Assembly (NCBI GenBank): GCA_045810625.1
Contig: JBJMVQ010000040.1
Coordinates: forward strand, 51,904-115,903
Direction: 5' to 3'
Length of the DNA: 64,000 nt
DNA from: Sulfurifustis sp.
Lineage (GTDB): Bacteria; Pseudomonadota; Gammaproteobacteria; Acidiferrobacterales; Sulfurifustaceae
The number at the start of each line of letters is the position of its first letter. The first letter of the stretch is position 1. A program made the position numbers and the translations under genes. Shown here piece after piece: positions 18,962 through 35,157 of the stretch. Under the pieces are notes generated by a model. It was not told the DNA's origin, ran no database searches, and saw only the letters and a program-made list of their open reading frames with translations.

Positions 18962-20007
18962 GCCTCGCGCTCGTGCAGCGCGGCGGCAATGCGGTGCGAT
19001 GCCGCCGCCGCAGGCGCTGCCACACGCCCGGCCGGCAGCGGCCGGCGGACCGGTAGATCACCCGCGCTCGACGTCTTGCCCGCGCCGCGCATGCGAATCG
19101 GGTCGTCGTACACTTCCACGTCGGCGAAGCCGTTGGCGCGAAACCAGCGGAAGATTTCGGGATAGAAGAATTTGAACTGGTACTTCGGCGTATACCAGTC
19201 GAACGTATCGAGCCAGCGCCAGCGCCAGTTCGCGTGCAACGAGATGGGACAGAGCACGCGCAGCACGTTGCCGAGAACCGGCACTTGGTACAGATAGTAG
19301 AGCGGTATGGCGAGCGTGCTCAGCGCGAACATCAGTCGCAGCGGTAAACGCGTGGTCAGGCGGCGGATCACGTCCGCGCAGCGATTGCCGGGACCGTAGC
19401 CGTGGTACAGGTAAACGGCGAGGCCGCCGCCCGGCTTCACCGTGGCGGCCACGTGATCGAAGGCGGCGCGGGGTTCGGGCGTGTGATGCAGCACGCCGAT
19501 CGAGTAGACCAGATCGAATGTCTCCGCGCGAAACGGCATGGCGAAGATGTCCGCCTGGATCAAGTGTACGTTCTCGCGCCGCCCGATGTTCGCGTACGCC
19601 GCGTCGACGGCGTCCGTCAGGTCGATGCCGACGACTTCGCCGCCGTATTGCGCCACGATTTCCGCGAACCGGCCGCAACCGACACCGGCATCGAGCACCA
19701 GGCGGCCGCGATAATCTTCGCGCGTCCAGCCGGTGGTCGCGTGCAGGGTACGTTCCGACTCTCCGCTGCCGCTGTGCGAGTCGAGCTGTACCCGGCGAAA
19801 CCAGTTCCATTGGCGGCCGAAGCTCGACGCGTACGTCATCGCGCGCACGAACCGCGGCACGCCGCGCGTGATGGGGTACTCGGCGCGACAGCCGCGGCAC
19901 GACAACGCGCCTTCCATGATTTCCGATCCCGGCTCGGGCGGCGCGTGCAGGTCGAGACTCTGCCGGCATTGCGGACAGACGAGGAATCTGAGAGCGCTGG
20001 TTTTCAC
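18958..20007 (-). CDS. Class I SAM-dependent methyltransferase with N-terminal Trm112-like zinc ribbon
   Basis: 349 aa. CPQC...CRGC Zn-ribbon, then SAM motif I LVLDAGVGCGRFA. Confidence 0.8.
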   Translation of the reverse strand: MKTSALRFLVCPQCRQSLDLHAPPEPGSEIMEGALSCRGCRAEYPITRGVPRFVRAMTYASSFGRQWNWFRRVQLDSHSGSGESERTLHATTGWTREDYRGRLVLDAGVGCGRFAEIVAQYGGEVVGIDLTDAVDAAYANIGRRENVHLIQADIFAMPFRAETFDLVYSIGVLHHTPEPRAAFDHVAATVKPGGGLAVYLYHGYGPGNRCADVIRRLTTRLPLRLMFALSTLAIPLYYLYQVPVLGNVLRVLCPISLHANWRWRWLDTFDWYTPKYQFKFFYPEIFRWFRANGFADVEVYDDPIRMRGAGKTSSAGDLPVRRPLPAGRVAAPAAAASHRIAAALHEREA

Positions 20008-20022: not shown

Positions 20023-21204
20023 CTAAATTCGGCCCGCCGCATCGGCGATCCACTCGCCCTGCGCCGCGACTTCCGGCTCGGGCGCGAGATCGCCGGCGGA
20101 CACCGCCCGCGCGGCGCCGGCCGCAGCCGGTATCGCTTCCCGCAGCGGCGCCGACTCCACCGTCCGCGCCGGCGGCGTGGACCCGGCGTCCCGATGGCGG
20201 CGCAACCACGTGGCCCTGAGGGTCGCGAGCAGGATGCGCAGATCGAGCCCGATCGAAAGGTGCTTGATGTAGTACAGGTCGTAGCGCAGCTTTTCCATTT
20301 CTTCGTCGAGATCGTTGGCGTAGCGGTAGCGGACCTGGGCCCAACCGGTGATGCCCGGCCGCACCAGCGTGCGCAGCGAGTAGTACGGAATCTTTTTGCC
20401 GCACTGCGGTATGTTGCGCGACACCAGCGCGAACAGCTCGAAGTTCGACGCCGGGTGCGGCCGCGGGCCGACCAGGTTCATATCGCCGCGCAGGACGTTG
20501 ATGAATTGCGGCAGCTCATCGAGCCGGAGCTTGCGCAGCCAGCGTCCGACGCGAGTGATGCGGTCGCCGTTGTCGCGCTCCCATTCGGTACGCTGCTCGG
20601 CCGCCGGATGCATGCTGCGGAACTTCAGCAGCGGAAAGATCCGTCCATCCCTGCCGACCCGATGCTGGACGAAGAGCACCGGACCGCGCGAGTCGAGCTT
20701 GATCGCGAGTGCAATCAGCGCCAGCAGCGGAGCGAAACCGACCAGCCCCACAACCGCCGCGAGCACGCTTATCGCGCGCCCCACGATGAGCGCGGGACCG
20801 GACGGCCGAAAGCCGGTCGAGAAAATCACGTCGCTCGGCGCGAGCGAGTCGATCGCGAGTTTTCCGGTGAGGCGTTCGTAAAGCTCCTCGCCGTCCTCGA
20901 TCACCGCGCCGCGGCAGATGCGCGCCTGCAACAACGGATCCCACGGCAAATCGGCACGCCGCTCCGTCAGCGCCACGACGATTTGTTCCGGCTGAAACTC
21001 ATCGATGATGCGCGGCAGGTCCGCCAGCGCTCCGAGCAGCGGCCAGGATCCGGCGGCGCTGCCGTCGGTGCGCTGTTCGCTGACGACGCCGACAACGGGG
21101 CGGCCGCGACGCGCGCGCGTGCCGATCAACTCGACCAGCGCTTGCGCCAACGGCGTCGTGCCGAGAATCAATATGCGCTTATGCAGGCGCGGGCGGAGGA
21201 ACAC
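20023..21204 (-). CDS. Polyprenyl-phosphate sugar phosphotransferase (bacterial sugar transferase, EPS priming enzyme)
   Basis: 393 aa. Conserved C-terminal catalytic domain (PLLKFRSM...DELPQFINVLRGDMNLVGPRP). Short N-terminus, like PEP-CTERM-locus EpsB-type enzymes. Confidence 0.85.
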   Translation of the reverse strand: MFLRPRLHKRILILGTTPLAQALVELIGTRARRGRPVVGVVSEQRTDGSAAGSWPLLGALADLPRIIDEFQPEQIVVALTERRADLPWDPLLQARICRGAVIEDGEELYERLTGKLAIDSLAPSDVIFSTGFRPSGPALIVGRAISVLAAVVGLVGFAPLLALIALAIKLDSRGPVLFVQHRVGRDGRIFPLLKFRSMHPAAEQRTEWERDNGDRITRVGRWLRKLRLDELPQFINVLRGDMNLVGPRPHPASNFELFALVSRNIPQCGKKIPYYSLRTLVRPGITGWAQVRYRYANDLDEEMEKLRYDLYYIKHLSIGLDLRILLATLRATWLRRHRDAGSTPPARTVESAPLREAIPAAAGAARAVSAGDLAPEPEVAAQGEWIADAAGRI

Positions 21205-21226
21205 GGCGAAGACGGCGCGGCGACGA

Positions 21227-22081
21227 CTACTTCCGCAGGAGCGAAGTCCACCAGCTGCGGCGCTTGCGGTTCGTCGCCGGCGTATAGCCGTAGCTGCGGT
21301 AACCGTACTGTCTGGCCAGCGAGCGGTCGTAGCGGTTGAAAACCAGGCCGAGGACGGATTCGGGGCTGAGCAAATTCAACGCTTCGGCGAGCGCCGCGCG
21401 CGGCGTGCGGTCGGCGGCGACGACCATGAAGAAACCGTCCACCCATTTGCTGATGAGCCGGCAATCCGGCACCGGCACCACCGGCGGCGCATCGAGGATC
21501 ACGTAGTCGTAGCGCTGCCGCGCCTGCGCGAGCAATTCGCCGAGACGGGGCGAGCGCAGCAGCTCATACGGCGCCGCCGGACATGCGCCCGCCGGCAGCA
21601 CGGCGAAGTTGAACGTCGGGACCGGCTGAATGACTTTTTCGAGCGGCAGGCCGGTATCGCGCACGGCATCGGCCAAACCCCGATGGTCGCGGTAGCGCAG
21701 GGTGAGGTGCTCGCCCGACGTGACCGAGGACCGGCGCAAATCGACTTCCACCAGCAGGACGCGCGCCTTGGGATCGCGCGCCAGCGCGCCGACGAGATTG
21801 ATCGCCGTCACCGACTTGCCGTCGCCCGGCGTCGGGCTGCATATGCCGACGATCACGCCGCCGCCCGGTTTGCGCATCTGCTCGACGATATAGCGCAGGC
21901 CGAGGTACTGCTCGGCTTCGAGCGAGTCCGGCGCGGTCAGGCTCACCAGGCGCGGATCGACGCGGACGACACAGTCTTCCATCGGCGCCGCCGGCGCCGC
22001 GCGCTGTCGTTGCACGGCGCCGAGGACGACCGCGCCGTCGTCGGTCCCGTCGAGCTTCACTTCCGACATCGAATGTTCCAT
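21227..22081 (-). CDS. Bacterial tyrosine (BY) kinase, cytoplasmic ATPase domain protein
   Basis: ORF 21227..22177 trimmed to ATG 22081 (MEHSMSEVKL). Walker A GICSPTPGDGKS, Walker B VILDAPP. C-terminal Tyr-rich tail (YGYRSYGYTP). Confidence 0.85.
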   Translation of the reverse strand: MEHSMSEVKLDGTDDGAVVLGAVQRQRAAPAAPMEDCVVRVDPRLVSLTAPDSLEAEQYLGLRYIVEQMRKPGGGVIVGICSPTPGDGKSVTAINLVGALARDPKARVLLVEVDLRRSSVTSGEHLTLRYRDHRGLADAVRDTGLPLEKVIQPVPTFNFAVLPAGACPAAPYELLRSPRLGELLAQARQRYDYVILDAPPVVPVPDCRLISKWVDGFFMVVAADRTPRAALAEALNLLSPESVLGLVFNRYDRSLARQYGYRSYGYTPATNRKRRSWWTSLLRK

Positions 22082-22133
22082 ACCGCCGTTTCCTGATTCA
22101 ACGCAAGCACAGCCGGAGCATTGCGCGCACCGA

Positions 22134-23561
22134 TCACGTTCCGCGCTGCGCCAGCACCCACACGAGTTGCTCCGCACGATGGGCGACGTGATAGCAGCCC
22201 TGCGCGATCAGCACGAGCGCGATGCCCGACAAAACCGTGGTCGCACCGAAACCGAGCCAGCGGCGCCACGCGTCGGCGCGGCTGGCGATTTGCGGAATGC
22301 CGGCGAGGATCGGCAGATGCGCGAACGCGTGCAGCTCCGCCATGCTGTGGAAAGACGTGTCGAGCCGTTCGGCGAGGAGCATCGCCGCGGCGGCGAGCAT
22401 GAGCGCAACGATCAGACCGAACAGCAGGAGCCGCACTCGCGGCGGCGCCGCCGGCGCCGCCGGCGCGATCGCCGGATCGACGATGCGGAACTGATTTTGC
22501 TTCTGGCGCTCCACCGTTTCGGCGAGCCGCGCTTCCTCGTAGCGCTTGAGCAGCGAGGCGTAGAGCTCCAGCACGGCGATGTGATCGCGCCCCGCCGACG
22601 GCTCGCTCTGGTCGTCGGCCGGCGCCTCCGCGGCGGCCGGCAACGGCGCGCGCGCGCGTCGCTCCGCGCCCGCGACCGGTCTGGCCAGACCGGCGCGATC
22701 CGCCGGGCGCGCACTCGGCGCGCCCGCACCGGCATCGGCGGTTTCCAGTTGCTGCTCCAGCGCCGCGATTTCGCGCTCGAGCTGAACCACATCGGGATGC
22801 TTGTCGCTCAGTCGCGTGCGCATCTCCGCCAGTTCCCGTTTCGACCGCTCGAGCCGATCGACGAGGGTATCGCCGGTGCTGCCAGCGGCGCGGGAGCGCT
22901 GTTGGCGCGCGCGCCGTTGCTCCGCGCGCTGCCGGTCCGCCCGCTGCTGCTCCGCGCGCAACTGCTGTTGGATATCATCGAGCTGCTGCTTGAGGAGCGC
23001 CGTGGTACCGACCGCCTGGCGCTCGCGAATCTTCTCGTTTTCCTGCACGTAAAACGAGGCGAGCGTGTTCGTCACTTCCGCCACGGTCTGCGGATCCCAG
23101 CCTTGATAGCTCAGGGTGAAAGCAACGGTGAGCCCGCGCCCCCATTGCTGGTTGACTTCCTTGCGCACCAACTGGATGTCGCGGCGCATCCGCTCGATCA
23201 CCGCCTCGGGCGGCGCTTGCTGGCGCAGGCGCGGGTACAAATCGAAACGGTCGATCAGCTCCTGTAAGCGCGCGCGGCTCAGGATTTCCTGCGTGACGGC
23301 TTGCAGCCGCGGCTCGATCTCGCTGCTCACGGACGATTTGGCGAAGCTCTCCGATATCTGGGCCTGCTCCACCAGGACCAACGCGGTCGCCCGATAAAGA
23401 TCCGGCAGGCCCGCCACCAGACCGGCCGCGGCGCTAAACACGGCGGCGAACACGAGGATGCCGAGCCACTTGCGCCGGTGCCACAACACCGACGCGTACG
23501 CGACGGCCGATCCATGGCCGATCGGCGCATTCACTTCCAGCGCCTGCATACGCATCTCCAA
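22134..23561 (-). CDS. Polysaccharide chain-length determinant (Wzz/PCP family) protein
   Basis: 475 aa. N-terminal TM helix, long coiled-coil periplasmic region (QQQLRAEQQRADRQRAEQRRARQQ), C-terminal TM helix. TTG start. Confidence 0.8.
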   Translation of the reverse strand: MEMRMQALEVNAPIGHGSAVAYASVLWHRRKWLGILVFAAVFSAAAGLVAGLPDLYRATALVLVEQAQISESFAKSSVSSEIEPRLQAVTQEILSRARLQELIDRFDLYPRLRQQAPPEAVIERMRRDIQLVRKEVNQQWGRGLTVAFTLSYQGWDPQTVAEVTNTLASFYVQENEKIRERQAVGTTALLKQQLDDIQQQLRAEQQRADRQRAEQRRARQQRSRAAGSTGDTLVDRLERSKRELAEMRTRLSDKHPDVVQLEREIAALEQQLETADAGAGAPSARPADRAGLARPVAGAERRARAPLPAAAEAPADDQSEPSAGRDHIAVLELYASLLKRYEEARLAETVERQKQNQFRIVDPAIAPAAPAAPPRVRLLLFGLIVALMLAAAAMLLAERLDTSFHSMAELHAFAHLPILAGIPQIASRADAWRRWLGFGATTVLSGIALVLIAQGCYHVAHRAEQLVWVLAQRGT

Positions 23562-23570
23562 TTAGGGCAG

Positions 23571-24173
23571 CTATGGAACGACAATGATGTCTCCCGGCTG
23601 CACCTGCACGTTTTCGCTCTCGCCGCCGGGTGCGATCGCCCGGTCGTAGTCGAACGGTATCCGCTTCACGGAGTTTCCGTTGGCACGCAGCAGCACGATG
23701 CGCTTGCGTCCGGCGAATTCGGTAATACCGCCGGCGCTTGCCAGCAGGTCGAGCACGGTCGCGCCGTTTTTGAACTCGTACCGGCCGGCCTTCCTGACCT
23801 CTCCCAAAACCGACGCGGTCAGATTGCGCACCTGCTGCACCACGACGGAAACTTCGGGGTTGACCACGTATCCCGTGAGCTTCTCGGCCAGCACACCGCG
23901 CAGCTGCATGGCGGTCAGGCCGGCGGCGCGCACGTCGTTCACGAGCGGCAGCGAGATCATGCCGTCCGGCCGCACCGGCACGGTTCGCGCCAGCGCCTCC
24001 TGCTTCCACACGGAAATTTGCAGCACGTCGCCCGGGCCGATCCGATATTCTTCGACCGACGCCGTATCGACGGCCGCGGCCGGCGGCCGCGGGTCCGGTG
24101 CGCTGGCGCAGCTCGCGGCCGCGCCGACGCAGATCGCGGCGAGAAGCACGCGACCGGCACGTCGCGCCGCCAT
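23571..24173 (-). CDS. Short Wza-like polysaccharide export outer-membrane lipoprotein (EpsE-like)
   Basis: ORF trimmed to ATG 24173 (MAARRAGRVLLAAICVGAAASCAS, lipobox AASC). Conserved IGPGDVLQISVW and PVRPDGMISLP (Poly_export/SLBB). Confidence 0.8.
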   Translation of the reverse strand: MAARRAGRVLLAAICVGAAASCASAPDPRPPAAAVDTASVEEYRIGPGDVLQISVWKQEALARTVPVRPDGMISLPLVNDVRAAGLTAMQLRGVLAEKLTGYVVNPEVSVVVQQVRNLTASVLGEVRKAGRYEFKNGATVLDLLASAGGITEFAGRKRIVLLRANGNSVKRIPFDYDRAIAPGGESENVQVQPGDIIVVP

Positions 24174-24210
24174 CGACGACTGTTTCCCATCGTTTCCCGG
24201 AATGCACATG

Positions 24211-25404
24211 TCAGGGTAGCTCGTCCTCGCCCGGTGCTTCCGTCGTGCGCCAGCGCGCACGACCGGGCGACAACTCGGCACGCGCCGGGGCGCCGACGAC
24301 GACGCCGAATGCGAGCACGTGGTGAACGATTTGCGTATCGCTCGGGACATCGAGCGTTCCGCGTTGCCTAACGGCGTCATAAGAACCGGTCAGCGCCAGT
24401 AGCGAGCTGATTCGGTAACTGGCCGCGACGCGGTAGCTGTAGGCATCGACCTCACCGTCGCCGCGCGCGCTTCTGGCAGCTCGCGCGCCCGCGCGGATTT
24501 CGAGCGCAGTTCCAAACGCGCGGACGGCGCTGGCCCCGATCGCGTCGGTGCTGACGACGCCGGCTTGGCCGATCACGGTCGACTGGCTGCGGCCGTATTC
24601 GAGCGCCAGCGTCCCGCGCTCGATCGTCTGCTGCAGCGACGCGGACGCCTCGACATCGTTCGACGCCTGCGACCAGCGCGGACCGGCGAGGAGCGCGACG
24701 CGGGTGCGCGACGTGAACGCATGGGTTCCACCGAAGAGCAATACGTGTGCGCTCGTGATGTCGCCGCCATCGAAATCGAAGCGGCGATAGAGATAGTCCA
24801 CGGTTGCGCTGTCGCGCCGGGTGATGGCGCGATCGACGCGCAGCTCCACCGTACGCGTGTCGCCCGCGACACCTCCCGCGAGCCGGTCGCCGATGAAGGT
24901 GTACGAGGCGGTTGCGACGCTGACCGGATCAAACCGGTACTCCACGGCGGGACCAACCGAGAGGCGCTCGGCGGGCGCCCGGCCCAAATTGAGGCCCGTC
25001 ACCGGGTTCAGCTCGCTCGGCGTCTGCGTCGCCGCGTAGTCGGCGCCGGCCGAGACGGTCAGCACCCGCGTCGGCCGGTAACGCCAATCGAGCGCGGCAT
25101 GCTGGCGTGCGCGGTTGGTGTCGAGATCCGGATGCTCGGCATAAGTTTCCGCGTCCTGGCTGTAGCGCCCCGCCAGCGTCCACGGCGCCGAGTCGTAACC
25201 CATTTCGATCGCGGGGCTCAGCCGCCCGATGCGATCCGGCTGCGGGCGCGACGGCGATGCGAAAATATTGTCGTCGTAGACTTCCGCCGCCGAAACCGAA
25301 GGCGTCATGGAGAACCCGGATTGCGCCGCCGCGCCGCCCGGCACGCCGCCGCCGAGCGCGATCAACAGCGCAACGATCCGGCATGCTCTTTCCCGGGCAT
25401 CCAT
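24211..25404 (-). CDS. Predicted outer-membrane beta-barrel protein of the EPS locus
   Basis: ORF trimmed to ATG 25404 (MDARERACRIVALLIALGGG...). Signal peptide. Alternating beta-strand pattern rich in Y/R/S/T/G. Confidence 0.5.
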   Translation of the reverse strand: MDARERACRIVALLIALGGGVPGGAAAQSGFSMTPSVSAAEVYDDNIFASPSRPQPDRIGRLSPAIEMGYDSAPWTLAGRYSQDAETYAEHPDLDTNRARQHAALDWRYRPTRVLTVSAGADYAATQTPSELNPVTGLNLGRAPAERLSVGPAVEYRFDPVSVATASYTFIGDRLAGGVAGDTRTVELRVDRAITRRDSATVDYLYRRFDFDGGDITSAHVLLFGGTHAFTSRTRVALLAGPRWSQASNDVEASASLQQTIERGTLALEYGRSQSTVIGQAGVVSTDAIGASAVRAFGTALEIRAGARAARSARGDGEVDAYSYRVAASYRISSLLALTGSYDAVRQRGTLDVPSDTQIVHHVLAFGVVVGAPARAELSPGRARWRTTEAPGEDELP

Positions 25405-25492
25405 CGCTGCGCCAATTCCGGCGCGCGCAACCCCGTCGGCAGGAGGCAATCGATCTTGCCCCGCGAAACGGTACCGCCACCCGTGCCGCCGC

Positions 25493-26104
25493 TTACGCGA
25501 GCGCGACCGCGGTGCAATCGATCTGTACGGCGATGCTCTGCCGCAGCAGCTCGACGGAAAGAACCAGGAGGCCTTTCTTGGGATCGGTCTTCACCAGGAT
25601 GCCTTCCGCGCTCGCGAGCGGCCCGTGGGTGATGCGCACGCGCTCGCCCTGGCGCAGGTAAGGATACGGAATCGTCGGAACGTCGGCAGCGAGAATGCGC
25701 TCGATCGCTTCGATCTCGCCGCCCGAAACCACCCCGAGCCGATCCCAGCGTTCGCCGAGCATGCGCACGACACCGCGGGTCTTGCACACCTCGATGTAGC
25801 TGTATTTGTCGATCGCGTGATGCAGAAACAGATAGCCGGGAAACATCGGGACACGGCCGAGGTAGCGCAGCCGCGCGCGCCGCGACCAACGGCCGACCTG
25901 CGGCAGCAACGTCTTGAATCCCTTCGCCGTCAGCTCGCCGTGCACCACGTGCTCGCAATTGCTGCGCGTCCATACCACGTGCCATTGCGGCTGAGGTTTC
26001 GCGGCCGCATGCGGGCCGACGGCCGCGACGAGCGCTGCGGTCTGGGCATCGATATTTTTTGGCAAAGCTTCGCCCCTTCGCGCCCCTTGCCTTCGCAGGG
26101 GCAA
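25493..26104 (-). CDS. NusG-family paralog (NGN + KOW), operon-specific transcription antiterminator-like protein
   Basis: 203 aa. NGN region WHVVWTRSNCEHVVHGELTAKGFKTLLPQV...MFPGYLFL and KOW GERVRITHGPLASAEGILV. Annotated start is TTG, and the true start may be internal. Confidence 0.75.
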   Translation of the reverse strand: MPLRRQGARRGEALPKNIDAQTAALVAAVGPHAAAKPQPQWHVVWTRSNCEHVVHGELTAKGFKTLLPQVGRWSRRARLRYLGRVPMFPGYLFLHHAIDKYSYIEVCKTRGVVRMLGERWDRLGVVSGGEIEAIERILAADVPTIPYPYLRQGERVRITHGPLASAEGILVKTDPKKGLLVLSVELLRQSIAVQIDCTAVALA

Positions 26105-26449
26105 TCGCTTTTACAGATTGTGCTGAATGGCGATCCGCTCCCCGTCGGCTACGCCCAAGAAGTGTCGCCGGCGGAACGCGCATCGCTACGCTTGTTCCGC
26201 CGTCAGACGCTCGTTGCGTCTCGTATTAACCGTACTCGGACAGGAACGCGGGGCGCAGAGTGCCCGCCACCGGACAATTCAACAATCGAGTAAATGCCCA
26301 AGTCGGGAGGAGACAGATCCCTTAGAAGCGCCTATCGATGCCACTTAATCGGCGGGAGAAATTTACGCAGCAAATCGGCACCCGTGCGCGCAGGCGGCCG
26401 AACGCGTGCGCGCCGGCGGCTCGGGCCGAAACCGGCGGTGCAGGTTGGA

Positions 26450-27091
26450 TCAGGTATGGACCAGTCCGCGGCGAATCGCGTAACGCACGAGTCCCGCGAC
26501 ATCGTGGATGTCGAGCTTTTTCATGGCGCGATTGCGATGCGCTTCGGCGGTTTTGAAGCTGACGTTGAGCACCCGCGCAATCTCTTTCGTGGTATTGCCC
26601 TCCGCCACCAATTGCAATATCTGCCGCTCGCGCGGCGTCAGCGGATCCTCGTCGTCGCCGGCGTTCTTGGTCAAGGCCAGGTAGGCGTCGACCACCGAGG
26701 CGGAAACCCCGGGGCTCAGGTAAATCTCGCCGTTGCGCACCTCGTGGATGGCACGGATCAGGTCGTCCGCCGCTTGGGTCTTCAGCAGATAACCGCGGGC
26801 GCCCATGCGCAGCGCCTGCAGCACATAGCTCTTTTCGGTGTACATCGTCAGCAGGATCGTCTTGATCTCGGGCGCGGTGCGGCGAAGCTCGTCGGCCGCG
26901 TCCAACCCGTTCAGCACCGGCATGGATAGATCGAGCACGGCGACGTCGGGACGCAGCGTGTGCGCGAGCGCGGCCGCTTCGCGTCCGTCCGAGGCTTCGC
27001 CGACGACTTCGTGGCCGGCTTTCTCCAGCAGCCCGCGCAATCCCTGGCGCAGGATCAAGTGGTCGTCCGCGAGCAGTATGCGGCTATGCAT
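26450..27091 (-). CDS. NarL/FixJ-family response regulator (REC + LuxR HTH)
   Basis: 213 aa. DDH...D phospho-acceptor region. C-terminal LTPRERQILQLVAEGNTTKEIARVLNVSFKTAEAHRNRAMKKL. Confidence 0.9.
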   Translation of the reverse strand: MHSRILLADDHLILRQGLRGLLEKAGHEVVGEASDGREAAALAHTLRPDVAVLDLSMPVLNGLDAADELRRTAPEIKTILLTMYTEKSYVLQALRMGARGYLLKTQAADDLIRAIHEVRNGEIYLSPGVSASVVDAYLALTKNAGDDEDPLTPRERQILQLVAEGNTTKEIARVLNVSFKTAEAHRNRAMKKLDIHDVAGLVRYAIRRGLVHT

Positions 27092-28010
27092 GCGTGCCTC
27101 CGAGCGGGATGTCGGCGATGAGCGTCGTGCCGCGCCGAGGCTCGGCGCGAATCTGCAGCGAGCCGCCGAGGGCGTTCAGCCGCTCGCGGATGCCGAGCAG
27201 CCCGAGACCCTGCGCCGCCGGCGCGCCCTGCGCGTCGAAGCCGCGGCCGTCATCGCTGACATGACAGGTAACGTGCGCCGGCAGGCGCCGCAGCTCGATA
27301 CGCACCGCGCGGGCGTGCGCATGCTTCACGGTATTGTTGAGCGCTTCCTGAACGATCCGGTACAGCGCGATCTCGACCGCCGCCGGCAGGCGCTCGCCGA
27401 CCGCCGCGTCCACCGTGACCACGAGCCCGGTGCGTTTGGCGACGCGCTCCGCCAGAAACTCGAGCGCCGCCGCGAGCCCGAGGTCATCGAGCACCGTCGG
27501 GCGCAACTCATGCGAGAGATTGCGCAAGTCGTCCTCGATCTGTTTGAGCAGGCGGCCGATCTCGCTGAAGCGCGCGCGCGCCGCCGCCGGCACGCCGGCG
27601 GCGACGATGTCGGCCAGCACGATATGCACCGACGCGAGCATTTGCCCGGCCTCGTCGTGCAGCGCGTGCGCGATCCGCTTCGATTCGGCCTCGAGCGCTT
27701 CGTTCAGGCCGCGCAGCGCGCGCATGCCTTCGCGTGCGCCGCGATGACTCATCTCGAACGCCGACAGGCATTCGGCGAAGAACTCCCCCGCCGCGCGCAG
27801 CGTTCGATCCAGCTCGCACTGCTCCGCCGCCAGGCGCCGCAACGCGAGATGATGGATCGCGGCCATTTCGAGCACGCCGCGGCCGTCCATCAGCGCGCGC
27901 CGACCGAGCTCGTAGCCGCGATTGAGCAGGGTTTCGCCGTCATGCTCGAGATACTCCCGCAGGATCTGCCAATACTGCTCGGTCAGCGGCGCTACCTCCA
28001 CCGTCGTCAT
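27084..28010 (-). CDS. Sensor histidine kinase (HisKA_3 + HATPase_c) with an about 110-aa N-terminal soluble domain, possibly RsbU-N-like (RsbT-receiving)
   Basis: ORF trimmed to ATG 28010 (MTTVEVAPLTEQYWQ...). H-box RIAHALHDEAGQML, N-box EALNNTVKHAHA, DDGRGFD, GLGLLGIRERL. No TM segments. ATGA overlap with the upstream phosphatase gene. Confidence 0.8.
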   Translation of the reverse strand: MTTVEVAPLTEQYWQILREYLEHDGETLLNRGYELGRRALMDGRGVLEMAAIHHLALRRLAAEQCELDRTLRAAGEFFAECLSAFEMSHRGAREGMRALRGLNEALEAESKRIAHALHDEAGQMLASVHIVLADIVAAGVPAAARARFSEIGRLLKQIEDDLRNLSHELRPTVLDDLGLAAALEFLAERVAKRTGLVVTVDAAVGERLPAAVEIALYRIVQEALNNTVKHAHARAVRIELRRLPAHVTCHVSDDGRGFDAQGAPAAQGLGLLGIRERLNALGGSLQIRAEPRRGTTLIADIPLGGTHA

Positions 28011-28612
28011 TTGCCACCGTTGTAGCGGAATATCACCACGGTCGCGTCGTCGCTGCCCTTGGCGTAGCCGTCGATTATCCGGTCCGCGAGGCGCTGCGGC
28101 TCGATCGCCGCCGGCAACATCTCGGCGAACTCGGTGCGCACGCCGTCGCTCGCGAGGATCAGCATGTCGCCCGCGGCCACCGGTTCGACCGACGGCCGCA
28201 GCGCCGGCAGCCGGTCGCCCACCGTGCCGGCGCGCACCAGCAGCGCGCGCACGCGCGGATGCGCGTCGGGATCGGCGTACACCAGCAGTCCGGTCACGTT
28301 GCCGATGCCGAGCCATTGTATGGTGTGCTGGCCGCAATCGAACGACGCGATGCTGATGGCGGCGCCGCGCAACCCGCGCATGTTCAGATGACAGCGCTCG
28401 ATGAGCGCCGCCGGTGCATCGCCCGCATGCTGCTCCAGCGTCCGCGCTGCGACGCCGGCGGCCTCGGCCGCGTAGTGCCCGTGACCAAGCGCATCGATCA
28501 CCGCGACCAGCGCGCCGTCGTCGAACGTTTGCACGACCGACCGATCGCCGCATTCGGTCTCGCCCGCGTGCACTAGCGACGCCGCGCCCCAGTCGAAACA
28601 CGGCGCGTTCAT
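28007..28612 (-). CDS. PP2C-type (SpoIIE/RsbX-like) serine phosphatase
   Basis: ORF trimmed to ATG 28612 (MNAPCFDWGAASLVHAGETECGDRSVV...). GD..VVA..DGLGHG and ASDGV motifs of RsbX/RsbU phosphatase domains. Confidence 0.75.
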   Translation of the reverse strand: MNAPCFDWGAASLVHAGETECGDRSVVQTFDDGALVAVIDALGHGHYAAEAAGVAARTLEQHAGDAPAALIERCHLNMRGLRGAAISIASFDCGQHTIQWLGIGNVTGLLVYADPDAHPRVRALLVRAGTVGDRLPALRPSVEPVAAGDMLILASDGVRTEFAEMLPAAIEPQRLADRIIDGYAKGSDDATVVIFRYNGGK

Positions 28613-29049
28613 CACCGCAACCACTTGGTCACCGTGACGGTGGTGCCGCACCCGACCTTGGAGACGATGTCGAACTCGTCCATGATGCGCCGCACGCCGG
28701 GAAGTCCGAGCCCGAGACTCGCCGACGTGGAATAACCCTCGCGCACCGCGAGCTTCGTATCCGCGATCCCGGGACCGCGGTCGCGCGCGACGATGGTAAT
28801 GCCGCAGCGGCCGGCACCGTCCACCGGGCGCACCAGGATCTCGCCGGTCTTGGCATAGTGAACGATGTTGCGCGCGAGCTCCGAGATCGCCGTCGCGACG
28901 AGCGTCGCCTCGCTTGCCGAGAAACCGATCTGCTCCGCCAGCGCCCGCCCCTGGCGCCGCGCCTGCACGATGTCGATATCCGACGCGACGGTTACGTACA
29001 CGCCGGAGTTTGCCTCAGCCTCGACCTTGCCCATGAACCGTTTTTCCAT
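28612..29049 (-). CDS. RsbT-like GHKL serine kinase (stressosome kinase / anti-sigma-type kinase)
   Basis: ORF trimmed to ATG 29049 (MEKRFMGKVE...). N-box ELARNIVHYA, G-boxes DRGPGI and GLGLPGV. Confidence 0.75.
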   Translation of the reverse strand: MEKRFMGKVEAEANSGVYVTVASDIDIVQARRQGRALAEQIGFSASEATLVATAISELARNIVHYAKTGEILVRPVDGAGRCGITIVARDRGPGIADTKLAVREGYSTSASLGLGLPGVRRIMDEFDIVSKVGCGTTVTVTKWLR

Positions 29050-29386
29050 CCAGGTATTTGATGCCTTCCTCGAGATCGAGCGCCGTCGTGACTCGCTCCA
29101 ACGTGATGCCGAGCTGCACCATCGCAAACGCGACTTCCGGTTGAATCCCGACGATCACCGTTTCGGCGCCGCGCAGCCGGATCATGTGGGCCAAATCGCG
29201 CACGGTCCGCGACGCGAACGAATCGAGCACATCGAGCGCGGTCACGTCGACGATTACGCCGCGCGAACGGAATTTCCCCACCTGCTGGACCAGCGCGTCG
29301 CGCAGCTGCACCAGGTCCGCATCCGTCAGCGCCGACTGGATGGTCGCTATCAGGTAGTCCTGCTGCTTGAGAATAGGAACCGCCAT
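29015..29386 (-). CDS. RsbS-like single-domain STAS protein (stressosome scaffold/antagonist)
   Basis: 123 aa STAS domain with conserved phosphorylatable Ser in VLDSFASR. Confidence 0.8.
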   Translation of the reverse strand: MAVPILKQQDYLIATIQSALTDADLVQLRDALVQQVGKFRSRGVIVDVTALDVLDSFASRTVRDLAHMIRLRGAETVIVGIQPEVAFAMVQLGITLERVTTALDLEEGIKYLDGKTVHGQGRG

Positions 29387-29396
29387 CGATTAAGCC

Positions 29397-30317
29397 TCAT
29401 TGCGCGCGAATCGCGCTCACCGGCTTCGGCGGCGTGTTTTCGCCCATCGGCATCACTTTGTATCCGAGCAGCCGCTCCGCCTCTTCGATGCCCCCCTGCA
29501 GATCGCCGACCGTGTTCATCTTGCCGAGGTCGACGCCGATATTGACCAGCGTTTGCGCGATCTCGGGCGACAGCCCGGTGACGATCACGGTGGCGCCGAG
29601 CAGCCGCGACGCCTCGACCGTCTGCACCAAGTGGTTGGCGACGTTCGAGTCGAGCGCGGCGACGCCGGTGATGTCGATCACGACCACACGCGCGCGGTTC
29701 GCGCGTATGCCGCGCAGCAATTGCTCGGTGAGCTGGCGCGCGCGCTGCGGATCCATCACGCCGATGATCGGCAGAATCAGCAGGCGCTCGCGCACTTGCA
29801 GGACCGGCGTCGACAATTCGCGGATCGCCTCCTGCTGCTCGCGGATGATGCGCTCGCGCTCCTGCACGAAACCGACCGCGACGGTGTTGGCGATGCGGTT
29901 GGCCGCCGGCTCGTAGGCGTCGAGGATGCGGTTCAGCAGCTGGAAGTCGGCCTGATATTTTGCGAACAGCGAGCGCGCGAGCACGTCGCGCAGCAGCAGC
30001 ACGATGCCGACGACCTCGTCCGTTTGCACGCCGCGCGGGATGATGCGTTCGGACAGGTTACGCGCATACGCCTGCAGCGCTTCGAACGTACCGGTCTCGA
30101 GCGCTTCGACGTAGTTGTCGTACACCGATGTCGCTTCCGCGAAAATTTCCTCCTTGCTCATCGCCGTCAGTAACTTCGCTTCGGTGATGCGGCGCGCCCA
30201 CTCTTCGCGCAGCTCGGTGCGGTGTTGGCGCAGATGCGCGACGAGCTCGCGCAGCAACGCGGCGGTCGAACCGGTTGCCGCTTCGGGCGCGCGAGATTTC
30301 TCTGTAGCCATCTTCAT
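29397..30317 (-). CDS. RsbR-like stressosome sensor (N-terminal sensor domain + C-terminal STAS)
   Basis: 306 aa. C-terminal STAS with conserved Thr region (VVVIDITGVAALDSNVANHL). N-terminal about 150-aa helical sensor domain. Confidence 0.75.
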   Translation of the reverse strand: MKMATEKSRAPEAATGSTAALLRELVAHLRQHRTELREEWARRITEAKLLTAMSKEEIFAEATSVYDNYVEALETGTFEALQAYARNLSERIIPRGVQTDEVVGIVLLLRDVLARSLFAKYQADFQLLNRILDAYEPAANRIANTVAVGFVQERERIIREQQEAIRELSTPVLQVRERLLILPIIGVMDPQRARQLTEQLLRGIRANRARVVVIDITGVAALDSNVANHLVQTVEASRLLGATVIVTGLSPEIAQTLVNIGVDLGKMNTVGDLQGGIEEAERLLGYKVMPMGENTPPKPVSAIRAQ

Positions 30318-31128
30318 GACGGATTCCTCCTCTGTGCGGAAAACACGGACAACAAAATTCGCAGGCGACTTCGGCGAAGCGAAGCGCCCGGTCGATTCGG
30401 GAACACCAGAAATGCGCGCGGCCGTAACCTCCCAACCACCTTACGTGCCTTAGGTAGTTATTTTTATGTCATCGGTTATTTCATTTGCATTTTATGGCTT
30501 TCGCCGCGAATAACAATGAGTGAGTTATGAGTACTGAATTGGACGCGTCGTGCTTCGTTAACGAATGCGTGCGGCAAACGCGCATCGATTGCGCTTTACC
30601 ACGATGTCACCATGGAAATTGCGCTTTGCGAAAACAGCAGCAGAGAAATGTGCGCGCAATCACCGGACGCCGCGCAATCAAAACCGTTCGTCGCAGCGAG
30701 ATCAATGATCGAGTCACGCCGGTGACTCCGACTTTCGAACAGGAGCAACGGAAAGGCTGTGAGACGTCCCGCGAATTCCCACCGGAGTATCAGGGCTAAA
30801 TACCTTAGCAGGCTCCGAGCAGTACTGAGCAAGAAAATTTTTGCGGAAGCGAACATGCGCGCTTTCGGTGAAACCTTCGCGCGACCGCCTTCGATTATCT
30901 GCACTCACCGAATGGATAGGTCGAACGGATCATCTTTACTACGTTGGTTGAATGATGGTTTGATATCGCGCCGCGTTTTTGGTTGGGTAGCTCGCACAAA
31001 ACCCTCCCGATAACTTTGGACGTAATTTCCCGCGCGTCTAAATTGTGTCTATCGCTTCTGTAGAACACGGCTACTTTGTTTTTCGCCCCGCCGAAACGAG
31101 CGGTAAAGGGGAGTTTAAAGGGAGTTCA

Positions 31129-31404
31129 ATGATGGCGGTTCTGCTGGTCCTTTACGAAACAAAAGACGACGAGAATAGAAAGAAGATGATGCATGCCTTG
31201 AAGGCGCGACATCCGAATTCAATAGAACTGACGAAAACCGCCTGCGCAGTTCACACGCGGTTGTTGCCGGTTCGGATATTCGATCAGTTGAAAGAGTATC
31301 TGAGGAGCGATGATCGGCTTTACGTGATTCCCCTCTCGCAGCCCTACGTGGGATATGGACCGCGCGAGACGACGCAGTGGCTAAGCGACTACTTGGCGGC
31401 ATGA
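31129..31404 (+). CDS. Small hypothetical protein (91 aa)
   Basis: In-frame part of ORF 31045..31404. Strong SD aaagggag 6 nt upstream of ATGATG at 31129. No recognisable family. Confidence 0.4.
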   Translation: MMAVLLVLYETKDDENRKKMMHALKARHPNSIELTKTACAVHTRLLPVRIFDQLKEYLRSDDRLYVIPLSQPYVGYGPRETTQWLSDYLAA

Positions 31405-31586
31405 CGCGCCCGCCCGTTTATTGACGGGCGTCTATCCTCCATCGCCCGCTGCTGCACGATCGCCGTCGCGGATCGCCGCAGGTCACGCAACGAAGCGGTA
31501 GCACTCTGTTCGCGTGCTACCGCCGCTTCGTTTCACCCCCGGCCCGCACGTCCGTGTGCGGGCGACGGAGCAGGGATCGCTGCGCG

Positions 31587-32153
31587 TCAGATGTCGCAAA
31601 CCGACGGAGTGGCCGGAGCCGTGTTGGAGTTGTTTCCCTTGTGCAGCTGAATATTGCCGCCGCCGGGCTGAGAGCCGCCCAGCGTGTGGTCCGGGTCGTT
31701 TTCCGTGGTGTAGACGAAGACGCCGTTCTTGCCCAGGCGGATGATGAAAATATCATCCACGCCGGGTTCGCCGTTGTCCGTCACGCGGACATGAAACAGG
31801 ACGTCGCCGAAGAGGTCGGTCTGGGCGTGGCCGCAGATATCCCGCGTGCGTTCATCGATCAGAATGTAGCCGGTTATATCCTGCTGCTGCGCCTGCACGT
31901 GCAGGCCGTTGCCATGGTCGATGTAGTTCAGATGGCCCCAGAACGCGCCGTTCTTGACGCCGCCGCCCACGCCGAAGTTCCCCTTATCGCCCGTCGGACG
32001 CACAATGAATCCGCCGCCCGTTATGAAATCGAGCGGGGTCGGCGGTCCCTCGCCCGGGTGGGCGCGTGCCGAGCCTGCGGGAAACATCCACGCGGTCGCC
32101 CCAAGGATCAGGCCCGCCAGGATTGCGGAAATTGTCATCGCTCGAACTTGCAT
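31587..32153 (-). CDS. Secreted hypothetical protein (signal peptide, Gly-rich)
   Basis: 188 aa. N-terminal signal MTISAILAGLILGATAWMFPAGSARA. No recognised domain. Confidence 0.5.
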   Translation of the reverse strand: MQVRAMTISAILAGLILGATAWMFPAGSARAHPGEGPPTPLDFITGGGFIVRPTGDKGNFGVGGGVKNGAFWGHLNYIDHGNGLHVQAQQQDITGYILIDERTRDICGHAQTDLFGDVLFHVRVTDNGEPGVDDIFIIRLGKNGVFVYTTENDPDHTLGGSQPGGGNIQLHKGNNSNTAPATPSVCDI

Positions 32154-32222
32154 TGTTCTTCTCCTACAGAAAGTTTCGTGTAAACCGCTTCATGCGCCGC
32201 TCTTCTTCCCGCTTCGGAAGAC

Positions 32223-32879
32223 TTAGAGCAACGGCAGTTTCAGAATCGGGAGAGTCGACGAGGTCGACGGTGTGATCCCGGCCGCCGCACCGGCGACCAC
32301 GACATCCGCCACGCCGGTGATGACGACATGCAAAGCGTTGACCACCATGCCGCTCGTGGACGGCACCTGCTCGTTGATCACGACCTTGGCGCCGATCAAG
32401 TTGAGCGCCTGGTTCGGCGCCCCGGTCACGACGACCGGCGAGCCGTTGATCGTCAGCCCGGCGATGCTCGAGGCGCCGCTCGGCGCGCCGCTCACGGGCG
32501 CGAGCGCCCGCGCCATCGCAAATTCGGCGCCGATGGAGATCCCCGGAAGGCTCAGGCCCACGTTCGCCGCCGACGCTTCGGACGCGACCGCATCCACCGA
32601 GCTGATGGTCGTCGCGTGCAAGACTTCCGCCGCGCCCGTGAGCGGGATATTCCCCGTCAATGACGACGCTTCGCGCGCGTCGCCCGCACCGCTGAGCGTC
32701 CCGGTGTCGGCGAGCGCGGTGGTTGTCCCGAGAACGGTAGCCTGGACCGCGCGCGCCTGGCCGCTGACATCGGCGATTCCGAGGGCAGGCCATAGAGTCA
32801 GGCCGGCCAGCAAGGTGGCCGCTTTGACTGCATTGCAGCGATGAAACATTGAGTAGTACTGCATCGTTAACCTCCGCAT
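32223..32879 (-). CDS. Secreted hypothetical protein (signal peptide, Ala/Gly/Thr/Ser-rich)
   Basis: 218 aa. Signal KAATLLAGLTLWPALGIA. Low-complexity repeats. Lies in tandem with the 31587 gene. Confidence 0.5.
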   Translation of the reverse strand: MRRLTMQYYSMFHRCNAVKAATLLAGLTLWPALGIADVSGQARAVQATVLGTTTALADTGTLSGAGDAREASSLTGNIPLTGAAEVLHATTISSVDAVASEASAANVGLSLPGISIGAEFAMARALAPVSGAPSGASSIAGLTINGSPVVVTGAPNQALNLIGAKVVINEQVPSTSGMVVNALHVVITGVADVVVAGAAAGITPSTSSTLPILKLPLL

Positions 32880-33698
32880 ACCAGTTGAAGTGGATGTGTG
32901 TGCTATCTCGGTGAACCTTCTCGTAGTCCGGACGGAATTCCGATCGTGGCGCTATGCATCCGCGCTAAATTGTTCTGCGGACAGCACACAGGCAGGACGT
33001 TGACCAAAAACTGATTCCGCCGGCGAACGGACGTTAAGCATCTGCGCGAATCTCCCCTTTCGTATTGGCCTTTTTCAACTCGCTCGCCGCGGCACTACCT
33101 GCGGGTCGCGGTGAAAATCAAACAGCAATCGTTTGATTCTTCGGCACAGTCCTCCGGCAGGTGCTTCTTAATCTGCACGGACGTCAACGTCAGGCAAACC
33201 GCATCGCACGCACCGCTGCTGGTTCGATCGCTACTTCTCGCTCGTTTTCGCCAGCGGTGCAGCTTTCGATCCGGCGCGTCCGATGCTCTCCCGCCCGCTG
33301 TCGAGGGCACAAGCCGGCAAGCGCCTGCAATTACCGGAGCCGATACTTCAAGTGAGCGCAGGCAAACACTGCAGGCTAGGCAGCGCCTCGATGCCAGTTG
33401 ATCGATTCGCATAGGACGAGGAAACAACCTGCGGGGTATCCGCGCGTGCAGTGCTGCGAACTTCGCGCGAGTGCCGGCTGCGCGCCGGCCACGCCGCGTC
33501 ACCGCGCGTCAATTGTTGATTCGGCAGCGGCGGACAGTCGAGCCGGGTAGGCACCCAAATTGACACGCTAGGCTTTCCGGTCGAACCGTCGCCGCAGCTC
33601 GCGCCTCGATCGTCGCTAGAACGCGACGCAATGATCACGCGTCCCGAAAGACGTTAGTAACGACGACGCATCAAACGAGGGTCAGTCGCCGAGAAGCG

Positions 33699-34721: not shown

Positions 34722-34959
34722 CGACCGTAAAACTGACGACTGTGCGCAAATAGGTTCGCCCGGGGAGTATCACGATGGGAGGTGAGGAAAGGTTCCATGA
34801 CCTCGCGCAGGGAGTGGGCATCCGCGGCGCGGCTGATCGTCAAGACGCTCTACAGCCACCTTGGCTTGATGCATACCGGGAGCCAGTCGCGGATCAGTCA
34901 CGGCGATTTGTGCGATGACCAACAGGCAAACACCACGCTGACATCCCCGGCGCCCGAAT

Positions 34960-35003
34960 GGTGGGCCGTGTAGGAATCGAACCTACGACCAACTGGTTAA
35001 AAG
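34960..35003 (-). repeat. Direct repeat copy 1 (tRNA-Lys(UUU) 3'-half-like, candidate att site)
   Basis: ggtgggccgtgtaggaatcgaacctacgaccaactggttaaaag. Its reverse complement reads as a tRNA anticodon-arm, T-arm and acceptor end with CCA (CTTTTAA loop, GGTTCGATTCC, ACGGCCCACCA). 43/44 identical to copy 2. Confidence 0.85.
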
Positions 35004-35157
35004 CCGGTGTATAGGTAATCCGGGATTTCTAACTCAACAACTTACGGAACGCCCGTTGCACAAAGTAGCACCGTAAAGCACCAAAGAGCACGAGCGAGTG
35101 GGCCCAAAACTGGGCCCAAACTTTTTCGACCACTCTAAGGTCGTCGGCGATATACGA

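Follow-up and report, generated by a model that had tools for sequence, protein, structure and literature searches.

How would a very long exopolysaccharide (EPS) operon be transcribed to its end, and where in its leader would the responsible factor be loaded? The question is raised by a stretch of 64,000 nucleotides (nt) from Sulfurifustis sp. (contig JBJMVQ010000040.1, positions 51,904 to 115,903; hereafter the window), in which the gene for a NusG paralog with NGN and KOW domains stands on the minus strand at the head of an EPS gene array. The initial annotation of this locus, made from the sequence alone, had likened the paralog to the processive antiterminators RfaH, UpxY and LoaP, and had held that its recruitment element, if any, is of a different kind from the ops site of RfaH. 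From comparisons with related loci, we infer that the cis-encoded paralog is probably a processive antiterminator for its own EPS operon and that a conserved element at 26107..26063 (minus strand), which overlaps the likely start codon of the paralog gene, probably serves as an ops-type loading site. The features on which this proposal turns are as follows.

25493..26065, minus strand: coding sequence of the specialised NusG paralog, 190 amino acids from the TTG at 26065; the longest open reading frame (ORF) extends to 26104 (203 amino acids).
26063..26076, minus strand: invariant core of the element, GGGGCGAAGCTTTG, from the comparison of 81 upstream regions.
26079..26107, minus strand: hairpin P1, directly 5' of the core, a candidate nascent-RNA pause hairpin, from the fold of the window and the comparison.

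The element was found by comparing the 500 nt before the NGN domain in 80 related loci and the window (81 regions), a search of orthologous leaders that had been proposed with the initial annotation and that returned both P1 and the core. Its architecture is a variable hairpin P1, followed by RAA and by GGGG(G)C GAA GCC TTG, and its sequence pattern is P1 plus GGGGCGNAGCC. In the window, the core comprises a G-run (26076..26073) that is also Shine-Dalgarno (SD)-like, a GCGAAGC mini-hairpin (26073..26067) and the TTG (26065..26063). The 10-mer GGGGCGAAGC is exact in 61 of the 81 regions (60 related loci and the window), and its carriers include Rokubacteria, Acidobacteriota, Nitrospirota, Gammaproteobacteria and others. 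Another 8-10 regions have loop variants, either GGA (the Nitrospira clade, L022 and L068) or AGA (L035 and L041); the natural change from GAA to GGA, the main variant, touches solely the free N of GCGNAGC. The information content is ~1.8 bits per position over ten consecutive positions, while the proteins of these loci are merely 45-63% identical. In an exact search, the core occurs as a single copy in the window, where its position weight matrix scores 19.7, compared with a maximum of 14.6 in shuffled sequences, and gives the lone hit above the shuffles; neither the exact search nor the matrix scan found further copies of the element inside the operon. The core also holds GG-N8-TG at 26074..26063, reading GGCGAAGCTTTG, which fits the consensus pause and from which the RNA 3' end of a pause is predicted at T26064. 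As single-stranded DNA, the non-template-strand core is represented by 5'-GGGGCGAAGCCTTG and 5'-AAGGGGCGAAGCTTTG.

These features have counterparts in the characterised loading sites of RfaH and UpxY. The ops site of RfaH is "an exemplar of a consensus pause" with the pause-inducing TG at positions 11/12, and its central bases form a small non-template hairpin with a C3:G8 pair and a flipped-out T6, which is read by the NGN domain of RfaH (Zuber et al., 2018, PMC5995543). Each UpxY of Bacteroides fragilis is recruited to a pause site in the leader, termed opsX, where a consensus-like pause is joined by a nascent-RNA pause hairpin that NusA enhances and, for class 1, by a non-template hairpin (Saba et al., 2024, PMC11685472). 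The non-template hairpins read GCGGTAGC in E. coli and YGCGNAGCR in Bacteroides (PMC11685472), and the window core, G-GCGAAGC-C, has exactly the GCGNAGC form. The "mini-hairpin" DNAs d(GCGNAGC) and d(GCGNNAGC) have a reported melting temperature of 76.5 C, while the RNA forms are much weaker, and the virion RNA polymerase of phage N4 reads GAA- and GGA-looped mini-hairpins in single-stranded promoters (PMC13037366). With its GG-N8-TG flanks, its GCGNAGC mini-hairpin and the nascent-RNA hairpin that precedes them, the element matches, in its sequence features, the architecture described for ops and opsX, and the earlier view that the site is of another kind than ops is not supported. The accompanying statement that the leader lacks an RfaH-type ops is correct in the literal sense, as GGCGGTAGCGTG is absent from it.

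In the window, the stem of P1 pairs 26103-26095 with 26090-26081 around a GAAG loop (26094-26091). The fold of the element in the window alone is weak (z = -1.5), and the evidence for P1 is comparative. Among the related loci, the 40 nt before the G-run fold with a mean of -15.4 kcal/mol, compared with -9.5 for other upstream segments and -8.6 for shuffles, and in 61 of 69 loci 1-3 nt separate the end of the hairpin from the G-run. A perfect 8/8 complement to the 3' arm is found in the locus's own upstream region in 27% of cases, compared with 4% for the arms of other loci. The 5' arms of P1 fall out of register in the MAFFT alignment, and statistics of energy and position, complementarity and permutation were therefore used instead of a covariance model. 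In the covariation test, 49 loci were anchored on the conserved stem base GGT...ACC with no fitting, and the arms were permuted among the loci 2000 times. One pair outside and four pairs inside the anchor were over-paired, with 0 to 7 of the 2000 permutations reaching the observed values. The changes among pairs are T-A, C-G and G-C exchanges together with T.G wobbles, with hardly any C/A. Given that T.G wobbles are tolerated and C/A combinations are nearly absent, this sequence comparison points to a true covarying hairpin that is paired at the RNA level. It should also be noted that AAGGGGCG occurs twice in tandem in the window (26088..26081 and 26078..26071, minus strand) and that the 5' arm of P1 (UGCCCCU) is able to pair with either copy, the first pairing giving P1 and the second involving the G-run of the core.

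The protein encoded downstream was identified with domain models, profiles and structure prediction. Its NGN domain matches Pfam PF02357 (E = 3.4e-12, residues 40-134). Its KOW domain is recognised by the family profile, which at positions 140-192 matches the isolated NusG KOW domains 1nz9 (1.4e-6) and 2kvq (~1e-6), and a PF00467 (KOW) hit is precomputed for some homologs. Over both domains, the family profile matches E. coli NusG with 1.3e-15 in the PDB profile search and RfaH with ~2e-4. With the NCBIfam models, UpxY (NF033644) is the top scorer of all NusG-type models at 68.5 bits (cut-off 100), followed by LoaP (NF033641) at 62.2 bits (cut-off 125), RfaH (TIGR01955) at 60.9 bits (cut-off 144.5), housekeeping NusG (TIGR00922) at 39.7 bits (cut-off 135.7) and NF006534 at 35.7 bits (cut-off 124), all below threshold; the UpxY, LoaP, RfaH and NusG alignments are full-length, extending to residues 196-200 of the paralog. 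By these sequence criteria, the window paralog is an NGN+KOW specialised NusG paralog that falls in no named subfamily at curated thresholds. Housekeeping nusG is a single-copy gene found in a secE-nusG-rplK-rplA context, which differs from that of the window paralog between a response regulator and EPS export genes. Because of the sub-threshold TIGR00922 score and this placement in an EPS locus, the protein is not regarded as the housekeeping NusG, in agreement with the initial annotation. The likening to RfaH, UpxY and LoaP is borne out as far as a specialised paralog heading a polysaccharide array is concerned; the protein stays below all three cut-offs, and antitermination is what we propose from its setting. 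A cluster of cysteines (C50/C107/C197) that was constant in the first 28 sequences was discarded as an invariant feature, as it is replaced in wider sampling.

The best AlphaFold2 model (mean pLDDT, the predicted local distance difference test, of 79) has a disordered N-terminus (residues 1-33), an alpha/beta NGN domain and a beta-barrel C-terminal domain. The latter is predicted with five to six beta strands (residues 144-202) rather than an alpha-hairpin, from a shallow alignment of 28 sequences and with mean pLDDT of 53-79 among the five models. Foldseek searches with this model matched NusG, a NusG-RNA complex (8f5g) and RfaH; the 8f5g chains were second by E-value and had the top TM-scores (0.45-0.53) among the best matches. 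In an hhalign comparison with E. coli RfaH (probability 94.5%, identity 22%), the ops-contacting K10 and R73 of RfaH have basic counterparts in R47 and R110 of the window paralog, and H20, R23 and Q24 align with E57, A60 and K61 and are not conserved, as would be expected because the loop of the site differs from that of ops. In two Nitrospirae metagenome-assembled genomes (MAGs; L022 and L035), the otherwise invariant TRGLV of the paralog is replaced by TRELV (G111E) in the segment that corresponds to the ops-contacting T72-V75 of RfaH. These G111E paralogs are paired with rare GGA or AGA loops, the sole pairing of this kind seen.

The family to which the paralog belongs comprises 1550 clusters in the database at E <= 1e-3, the majority of them from metagenomes of soil and groundwater. 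In species-representative genomes, all of which are MAGs, it occurs in Rokubacteria/Methylomirabilota, Acidobacteriota, Nitrospirota, Gammaproteobacteria, Binatia, Gemmatimonadales and others. Downstream of the paralog and on the same strand are found a sugar transferase and a chain-length determinant (each in 49 of the 80 related loci), a kinase (44/80) and an exporter (39/80), and an outer-membrane barrel follows the paralog in 35/80, with a median start 111 nt after it. The gene order of the window is the commonest order among the related loci. Judged from this gene-context analysis, the position at the head of EPS clusters across phyla corresponds to the genomic setting typical of cis-encoded antiterminators such as UpxY. 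The upstream gene is variable: a NarL-type regulator in 13/80 loci, one of the OmpR type in L081 and, in L083, a TetR gene in divergent orientation. Several MAGs have two paralog loci (L002/L009, L014/L016, L049/L059, L006/L029 and L024/L034); in these pairs the core motif is alike, the P1 sequences differ and there is no UpxZ-like inhibitor gene.

Metagenome contigs were also scanned for the exact 18-mer RAAGGGGGCGAAGCCTTG, which was found at at least 120 loci. Among the matches listed, the paralog is directly downstream in 95 of 120, 5 are cut by the contig end and 20 are without a paralog; thus, 95 of these 115 assessable copies directly precede the paralog. About nine of the 20 paralog-less copies among the matches listed keep P1 and the core before other EPS genes. 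In L097, the TTG serves as the start of a GT2 glycosyltransferase gene, and the deacetylase encoded next has an N-terminus that resembles, by eye, the PEP-CTERM-locus type. In L088, L124 and L170, sugar-transferase operons are reached via a short ORF starting at the TTG, and in L088 and L124 these short ORFs end at or overlap the ATG of the next gene. L200 has a copy before the chain-length determinant, and its paralog, 0.5 kb upstream, has its own variant copy. In L011, a second full copy stands ~100 nt before the chain-length determinant, after an inserted glmS, and in L045 the element is at the operon head, one gene before the paralog. Because copies also precede EPS genes without an adjacent paralog, the element, as judged from its sequence contexts, is a mark of the heads of EPS transcription units and is not tied to the paralog gene. 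Just upstream of two paralog-less copies, and on the same strand, is encoded a small protein that is PilZ-like by eye (...RYAFRAPVLYR...LNVSPSGALI...; L124 44..430 and L170 4139..4468), a neighbour that hints at an input from cyclic di-GMP.

Put together, the proposed loading would proceed as follows. RNA polymerase, starting from a promoter in the leader, would transcribe P1 and pause at GG-N8-TG with the RNA 3' end at T26064, and the nascent P1 hairpin would help to hold this pause. The non-template strand in the open bubble would then fold into the very stable GCGAAGC mini-hairpin, which the NGN domain of the paralog would read, perhaps together with the conserved AACCRAAG just upstream, in the upstream duplex, in the manner of UpxY. 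The paralog would occupy the NusG site on the polymerase, replacing NusG, and would stay bound, thereby suppressing pausing and Rho-dependent or intrinsic termination over the ~24 kb that follow. The predicted beta-form KOW domain fits the reported link between monomorphic paralogs and their target operons (PMC13015549). As the first cistron behind the site, the paralog gene would be expected to create positive feedback. In most loci the site overlaps an SD-like G-run and a weak TTG, and loading of the factor may therefore be coupled to that of the first ribosome. A further-reaching version, to which we give only tentative and rather doubtful credence, is that a single, near-identical universal loading site of ops type for one paralog family, made up of an RNA pause hairpin, the GCGAAGC non-template mini-hairpin and a TG pause, marks the EPS regulon in at least six or seven phyla, and that in most loci 17 nt of it double as SD sequence and TTG, so that antiterminator and first ribosome are coupled at one paused complex.

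Several observations weigh against a loading site of this type. P1 ends 16-17 nt before the predicted pause, while most characterised pause hairpins lie at -9 to -14; one outlier among the UpxY pause hairpins is at -16 (PMC11685472). The Nitrospira clade lacks the G that follows the T-run, and the TG flank of the pause is thus not universal. The core is identical in both loci of two-paralog genomes and so cannot give locus specificity of the kind that opsX has. No covariation between protein and element was found when the loop variants were set against the predicted DNA-contact residues, and L077, a locus with the GAA loop, does not differ in these residues from its relatives with GGA. Of the four RfaH side chains in contact with ops (K10, H20, R23 and R73), only two have counterparts in the window paralog. 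Finally, the G-run at ideal spacing to a conserved TTG and the short TTG-start ORFs of the paralog-less copies also fit a translational role.

The last point touches on the start codon itself. The minus-strand ORF at 25493..26104 is real and, in the ORF map of the window, reaches 203 amino acids in its longest form, again from a TTG. An NCBI protein of 99% identity (P0001, from a MAG of Sulfurifustis sp.) begins 13 codons later, at the TTG at 26065..26063; AAGGGG stands at SD distance, 7 nt before this TTG; and a TTG is found in frame at the matching place in 53 of 73 related loci, with ATG or GTG there in 3 more. From these sequences, the true start is likely the internal TTG at 26065, as the initial annotation had suspected. 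Because the start is moved to this codon, the leader measures 384 nt rather than the earlier estimate of about 345 nt. The G-run at this spacing and the conserved in-frame TTG also speak for the idea that the element is chiefly a device for translation-initiation control, in which P1, a G-rich SD sequence and a weak TTG set the output of the first cistron, either by masking of the G-run in a competing pairing or by the action of an RNA-binding regulator, with recruitment of the paralog taking place at some other position or needing no specific site. In the window copy, AGGGGC of the motif is an alternative partner for the 5' arm of P1, and the minimum-energy fold of a 61-nt segment uses this second pairing, which would hide the SD-like G-run. 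In addition, the TTG is the start of the glycosyltransferase in L097, and the junctions between the short ORFs and the next ATG in L088 and L124 suggest translational coupling. Against this, the 7-nt spacer, CGAAGCC, varies as little as the SD sequence does, and ribosome binding needs no such spacer sequence. Furthermore, the canonical TTG is absent in 17 of the 73 loci, in which the likely start, with its own SD sequence, lies 25 nt upstream or 17 to 58 nt downstream (from -25 to +58), while the core keeps its sequence. The Nitrospira clade has the upstream ATG, 25 nt before the usual place and with its own GGAGG, and there the core lies inside the ORF and is translated; in L010, L016 and L021, the ATG is 6 nt further downstream; and in L040, L041, L044, L054 and L066, a separate SD sequence and ATG are 26-58 nt downstream. 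Because the core is constant while the start codon moves, the element is not merely a ribosome-binding site, and a second copy ~100 nt before the next gene, as in L011, also argues against a role confined to initiation. We therefore regard a chiefly translational function as improbable.

Recruitment of the paralog at the RNA level, as proposed for LoaP, was weighed in the same way and is, in our estimation, similarly improbable. It would have the KOW domain or a basic surface of the paralog bind P1, the GGGGC-GAA-GCCUU RNA hairpin or both, with no specific part for the non-template DNA. The covariation of P1 with G.U wobbles and almost no C/A, the high rank of the NusG-RNA complex chains in the Foldseek search and the ability of GGGGC/GCCUU to make a 5-bp RNA stem with G.U pairs are all in keeping with it. 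The sequence-invariant part of the element is nevertheless the minimal GCGNAGC, which is extraordinarily stable as DNA and weak as RNA and which is the form of the non-template hairpin in characterised UpxY sites; moreover, the sequence of P1 is free above its GGT/ACC base, which would be unusual for a sequence-specific RNA ligand across phyla. Recruitment through RNA is thus possible for P1 and less likely for the invariant core. That the element is instead the site of some other shared EPS regulator (a DNA-binding factor, a small RNA or a CsrA-like protein), with the adjacency of the paralog being merely positional, would account for copies before EPS genes without an adjacent paralog and for the purine-rich GA/GGA loops frequent in P1, but is very improbable given that no conserved candidate regulator gene is present, the upstream regulators vary by locus, GGA is inconsistently present in the P1 loops, 95 of the 115 assessable metagenomic copies among the matches listed precede the paralog and no Rfam family is found at the site.

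NusG paralogs beside envelope-polysaccharide clusters are a known class (PMC7593976, PMC7819879), and the ops-type loading that we favour can be compared with the characterised members. UpxY of the capsule operons of Bacteroides fragilis (Chatzidaki-Livanis et al., 2009; Saba et al., 2024) is the closest, both by its top, sub-threshold model score and because in both systems the polysaccharide operon presumably served by the paralog begins with the paralog gene. As predicted from its sequence, the leader site of the window has the opsX combination of a nascent-RNA hairpin, a consensus-like pause and the GCGNAGC non-template form. The upxY start codon is 9 to 111 nt downstream of the site, and class-2 sites adjoin start codons, for which a link between loading of the factor and of the first ribosome has been suggested (PMC11685472); the start codon of the window paralog is likewise near its site, as in class 2 (+9). 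In contrast to UpxY, the window family scores 68.5 instead of the required 100 bits, has no UpxZ-like second gene (the next gene in the window encodes an outer-membrane barrel) and has a core that is constant across phyla and between the two loci of one genome, while opsX is locus-specific. The window element, unlike opsX, also stands before EPS genes without an adjacent paralog, and the hosts are Proteobacteria, Rokubacteria, Acidobacteriota and Nitrospirota with XrtA/PEP-CTERM-type loci, not Bacteroidota.

With RfaH and ops (GGCGGTAGnnTG; the JUMPStart region of Enterobacteria), the window system shares a specialised paralog dedicated to long operons for envelope polysaccharides, a site of 12 nt in which GG...TG pause flanks enclose a small central GCG...AGC non-template hairpin, and basic residues at the K10 and R73 positions; when right-aligned, the majority form GGCGAAGCCTTG has the same GG-N8-TG frame and 7/12 bases in common with ops. 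It differs in that literal GGCGGTAGnnTG is replaced by the conserved site GGCGAAGC(C/T)TTG, in that the loop has 3 nt instead of 4 with no equivalent of T6, and in that H20, R23 and Q24 are not kept. The model score is 60.9 against 144.5 bits, the window paralog is encoded in cis while RfaH is stand-alone, and a beta-barrel C-terminal domain is predicted in place of the autoinhibiting alpha-hairpin of RfaH. In addition, the window site overlaps a strong SD sequence, whereas RfaH targets are described as being without canonical ribosome-binding sites (PMC5995543). LoaP of Bacillus velezensis and related Firmicutes (Goodson et al., 2017; PMC12691694) is also encoded beside its target cluster, has a 5'-leader hairpin implicated in recruitment and gives a comparable model similarity (62.2 bits), which is below the 125-bit cut-off. 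It serves polyketide antibiotic clusters and acts on intrinsic terminators of the leader, however, while no such terminator follows the window element, whose invariant part is a DNA-type mini-hairpin. A 2026 preprint describes "monomorphic" RfaH homologs that sit in or beside their target operons (PMC13015549), with which the window paralog shares a predicted constitutive beta-form KOW domain and a place at its presumed target operon. The window case fits the stepwise model put forward there, in which cis-acting paralogs came before the autoinhibited, trans-acting RfaH; that work, in contrast, covers proteins passing the RfaH model, mostly of Proteobacteria, and the window family fails this model.

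The remainder of the leader was searched for further signals, and two rows can be added to the features given above.

26066..26449, minus strand: intergenic leader of 384 nt, from the stop codon of the regulator gene to the TTG of the paralog, by sequence.
26170..26221, minus strand: two neighbouring hairpins upstream of the conserved element, from the minimum-energy and centroid folds of the leader.

The small gacgc-tcgtt-gcgtc hairpin reported with the initial annotation is found in the minimum-energy fold, at 26206..26220 on the plus strand (hairpin row 26205..26221), and beside it is a second hairpin of 8 bp, GGCGGAAC/GTTCCGCC, at 26170..26201. The pair is followed by a weak CUUCUU tract and is not a canonical terminator. 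The whole leader folds no better than shuffles (z = -0.77). No sigma-70-like promoter was found in the leader by scan, and no terminator-like site was found on the coding (minus) strand in the leader scan or after the element. A sigma-54-like TGGC-N9-TGC at ~26268..26253 was set aside, because such matches upstream of the element are no commoner than on the reverse complement. A different motif, YGGCTAG-N5-(T)TGCY, is found repeatedly at a rather uniform ~115-140 nt before the element in L019, L032, L064, L067, L069, L071, L073, L078 and L080; in these Nitrospira and some Rokubacteria loci it may be a promoter of the -24/-12 type or of the extracytoplasmic function (ECF) type, and it is not evident in the window. 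No Rfam family reached threshold in the leader or at the element site, and the overlaps in the leader were rejected as chance-level, namely c-di-GMP-I-GGC (13.3 bits, E = 3.3, most of the model missing) and P35 (17 bits, at 26170..26221).

Scans with NCBIfam and Pfam and the ORF map place a co-oriented EPS array of ~24 kb downstream of the paralog, extending to ~1814, which agrees with the earlier description of the paralog as the first gene of a long EPS operon. All of the following are on the minus strand.

24211..25449, minus strand: second gene, predicted outer-membrane beta-barrel of 412 amino acids (Pfam BBP2_2; NCBIfam TIGR03016, PEP-CTERM-system-associated, below cut-off).
23571..24380, minus strand: exporter, Poly_export/SLBB (TIGR03027).
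22134..23561, minus strand: chain-length determinant (TIGR03007).
21227..22177, minus strand: tyrosine-kinase-like ATPase (TIGR03018).
20023..21204, minus strand: priming sugar transferase (TIGR03013, TIGR03025).
20023..24380, minus strand: export/assembly core as a block, with a gene order shared with 18 loci and partly with many more.
1814..20007, minus strand: remaining EPS array (NCBIfam, Pfam), with a methyltransferase, an O-antigen-ligase-like protein, GT4 glycosyltransferases, an adenylating enzyme, GNAT proteins, a flippase, a deacetylase, an XrtA/PEP-CTERM-type amidotransferase and a Big_7 protein.
26450..27091, minus strand: NarL/LuxR-type response regulator (Pfam Response_reg and GerE), directly upstream of the leader.

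The XrtA/PEP-CTERM models TIGR03007, TIGR03013, TIGR03018, TIGR03027 and, for the amidotransferase, TIGR03108 give the best or near-best matches, all below their curated cut-offs, and the broader TIGR03025 alone passes its cut-off (304.3 against 295.55). No exosortase (XrtA) gene was identified among the window ORFs scanned. The NarL-type regulator is a candidate for an initiator-level regulator of the EPS operon, and the leader, named in the initial annotation as its likely target, may be one. It was rejected as a conserved partner of the paralog, as such a gene is upstream on the same strand in only 13/80 related loci.

Further upstream, the minus-strand region 26450..30317 encodes a stressosome-like module with RsbR (RsbRD_N and STAS domains, 29397..30317), RsbS (STAS, 29015..29386), an RsbT-like kinase (28612..29127) and a PP2C/SpoIIE phosphatase (28007..28651). 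The phosphatase gene is followed by a histidine kinase with an RsbU_N domain (~27084..28004) and then by the NarL-type regulator, and this arrangement may be that of a stressosome feeding a two-component system ahead of the EPS operon. In addition, 23 tRNA genes are arrayed on the plus strand at 37990..44209, within a stretch of lower G+C content (~30000..47000); the G+C content of this region is 53-60%, compared with 65-70% in the EPS locus, and it looks like a tRNA-array island or a mobile element.

Among the specialised paralogs, only RfaH, UpxY and LoaP have recruitment signals that are understood, and all three groups come from cultured, host-associated or model bacteria. In the literature library searched, no paper had NusG together with PEP-CTERM, no description of the family or of the element was found, and the motif sequence surfaced only in unrelated primers. 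While ops-type sites are known for RfaH and UpxY, what is new here is a large uncharacterised family at XrtA/PEP-CTERM-type EPS loci of mostly uncultured phyla and, with it, a candidate loading site that is sharply conserved. The loci also offer a natural mutational series, in which the loop is GAA, GGA or AGA, the G-run is 4 or 5 long, the TG flank is present or missing and the start codon lies anywhere from -25 to +58. If our interpretation is correct, the GCG..AGC non-template hairpin would be an ancient and widely reused handle for NusG-type factors beyond Enterobacteria and Bacteroides, and the element would provide a compact part with which synthetic biology could drive very long operons. 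If the more doubtful reading of a universal site also held, the element would act as an inbuilt coupling device and, as a portable module, would allow entire EPS loci to work after horizontal transfer. For the uncultured Rokubacteria, Acidobacteriota and Nitrospirota in which the family is found, the element would, on the ops-type reading, serve as an annotation marker for the heads of the operons of EPS and the biofilm matrix.

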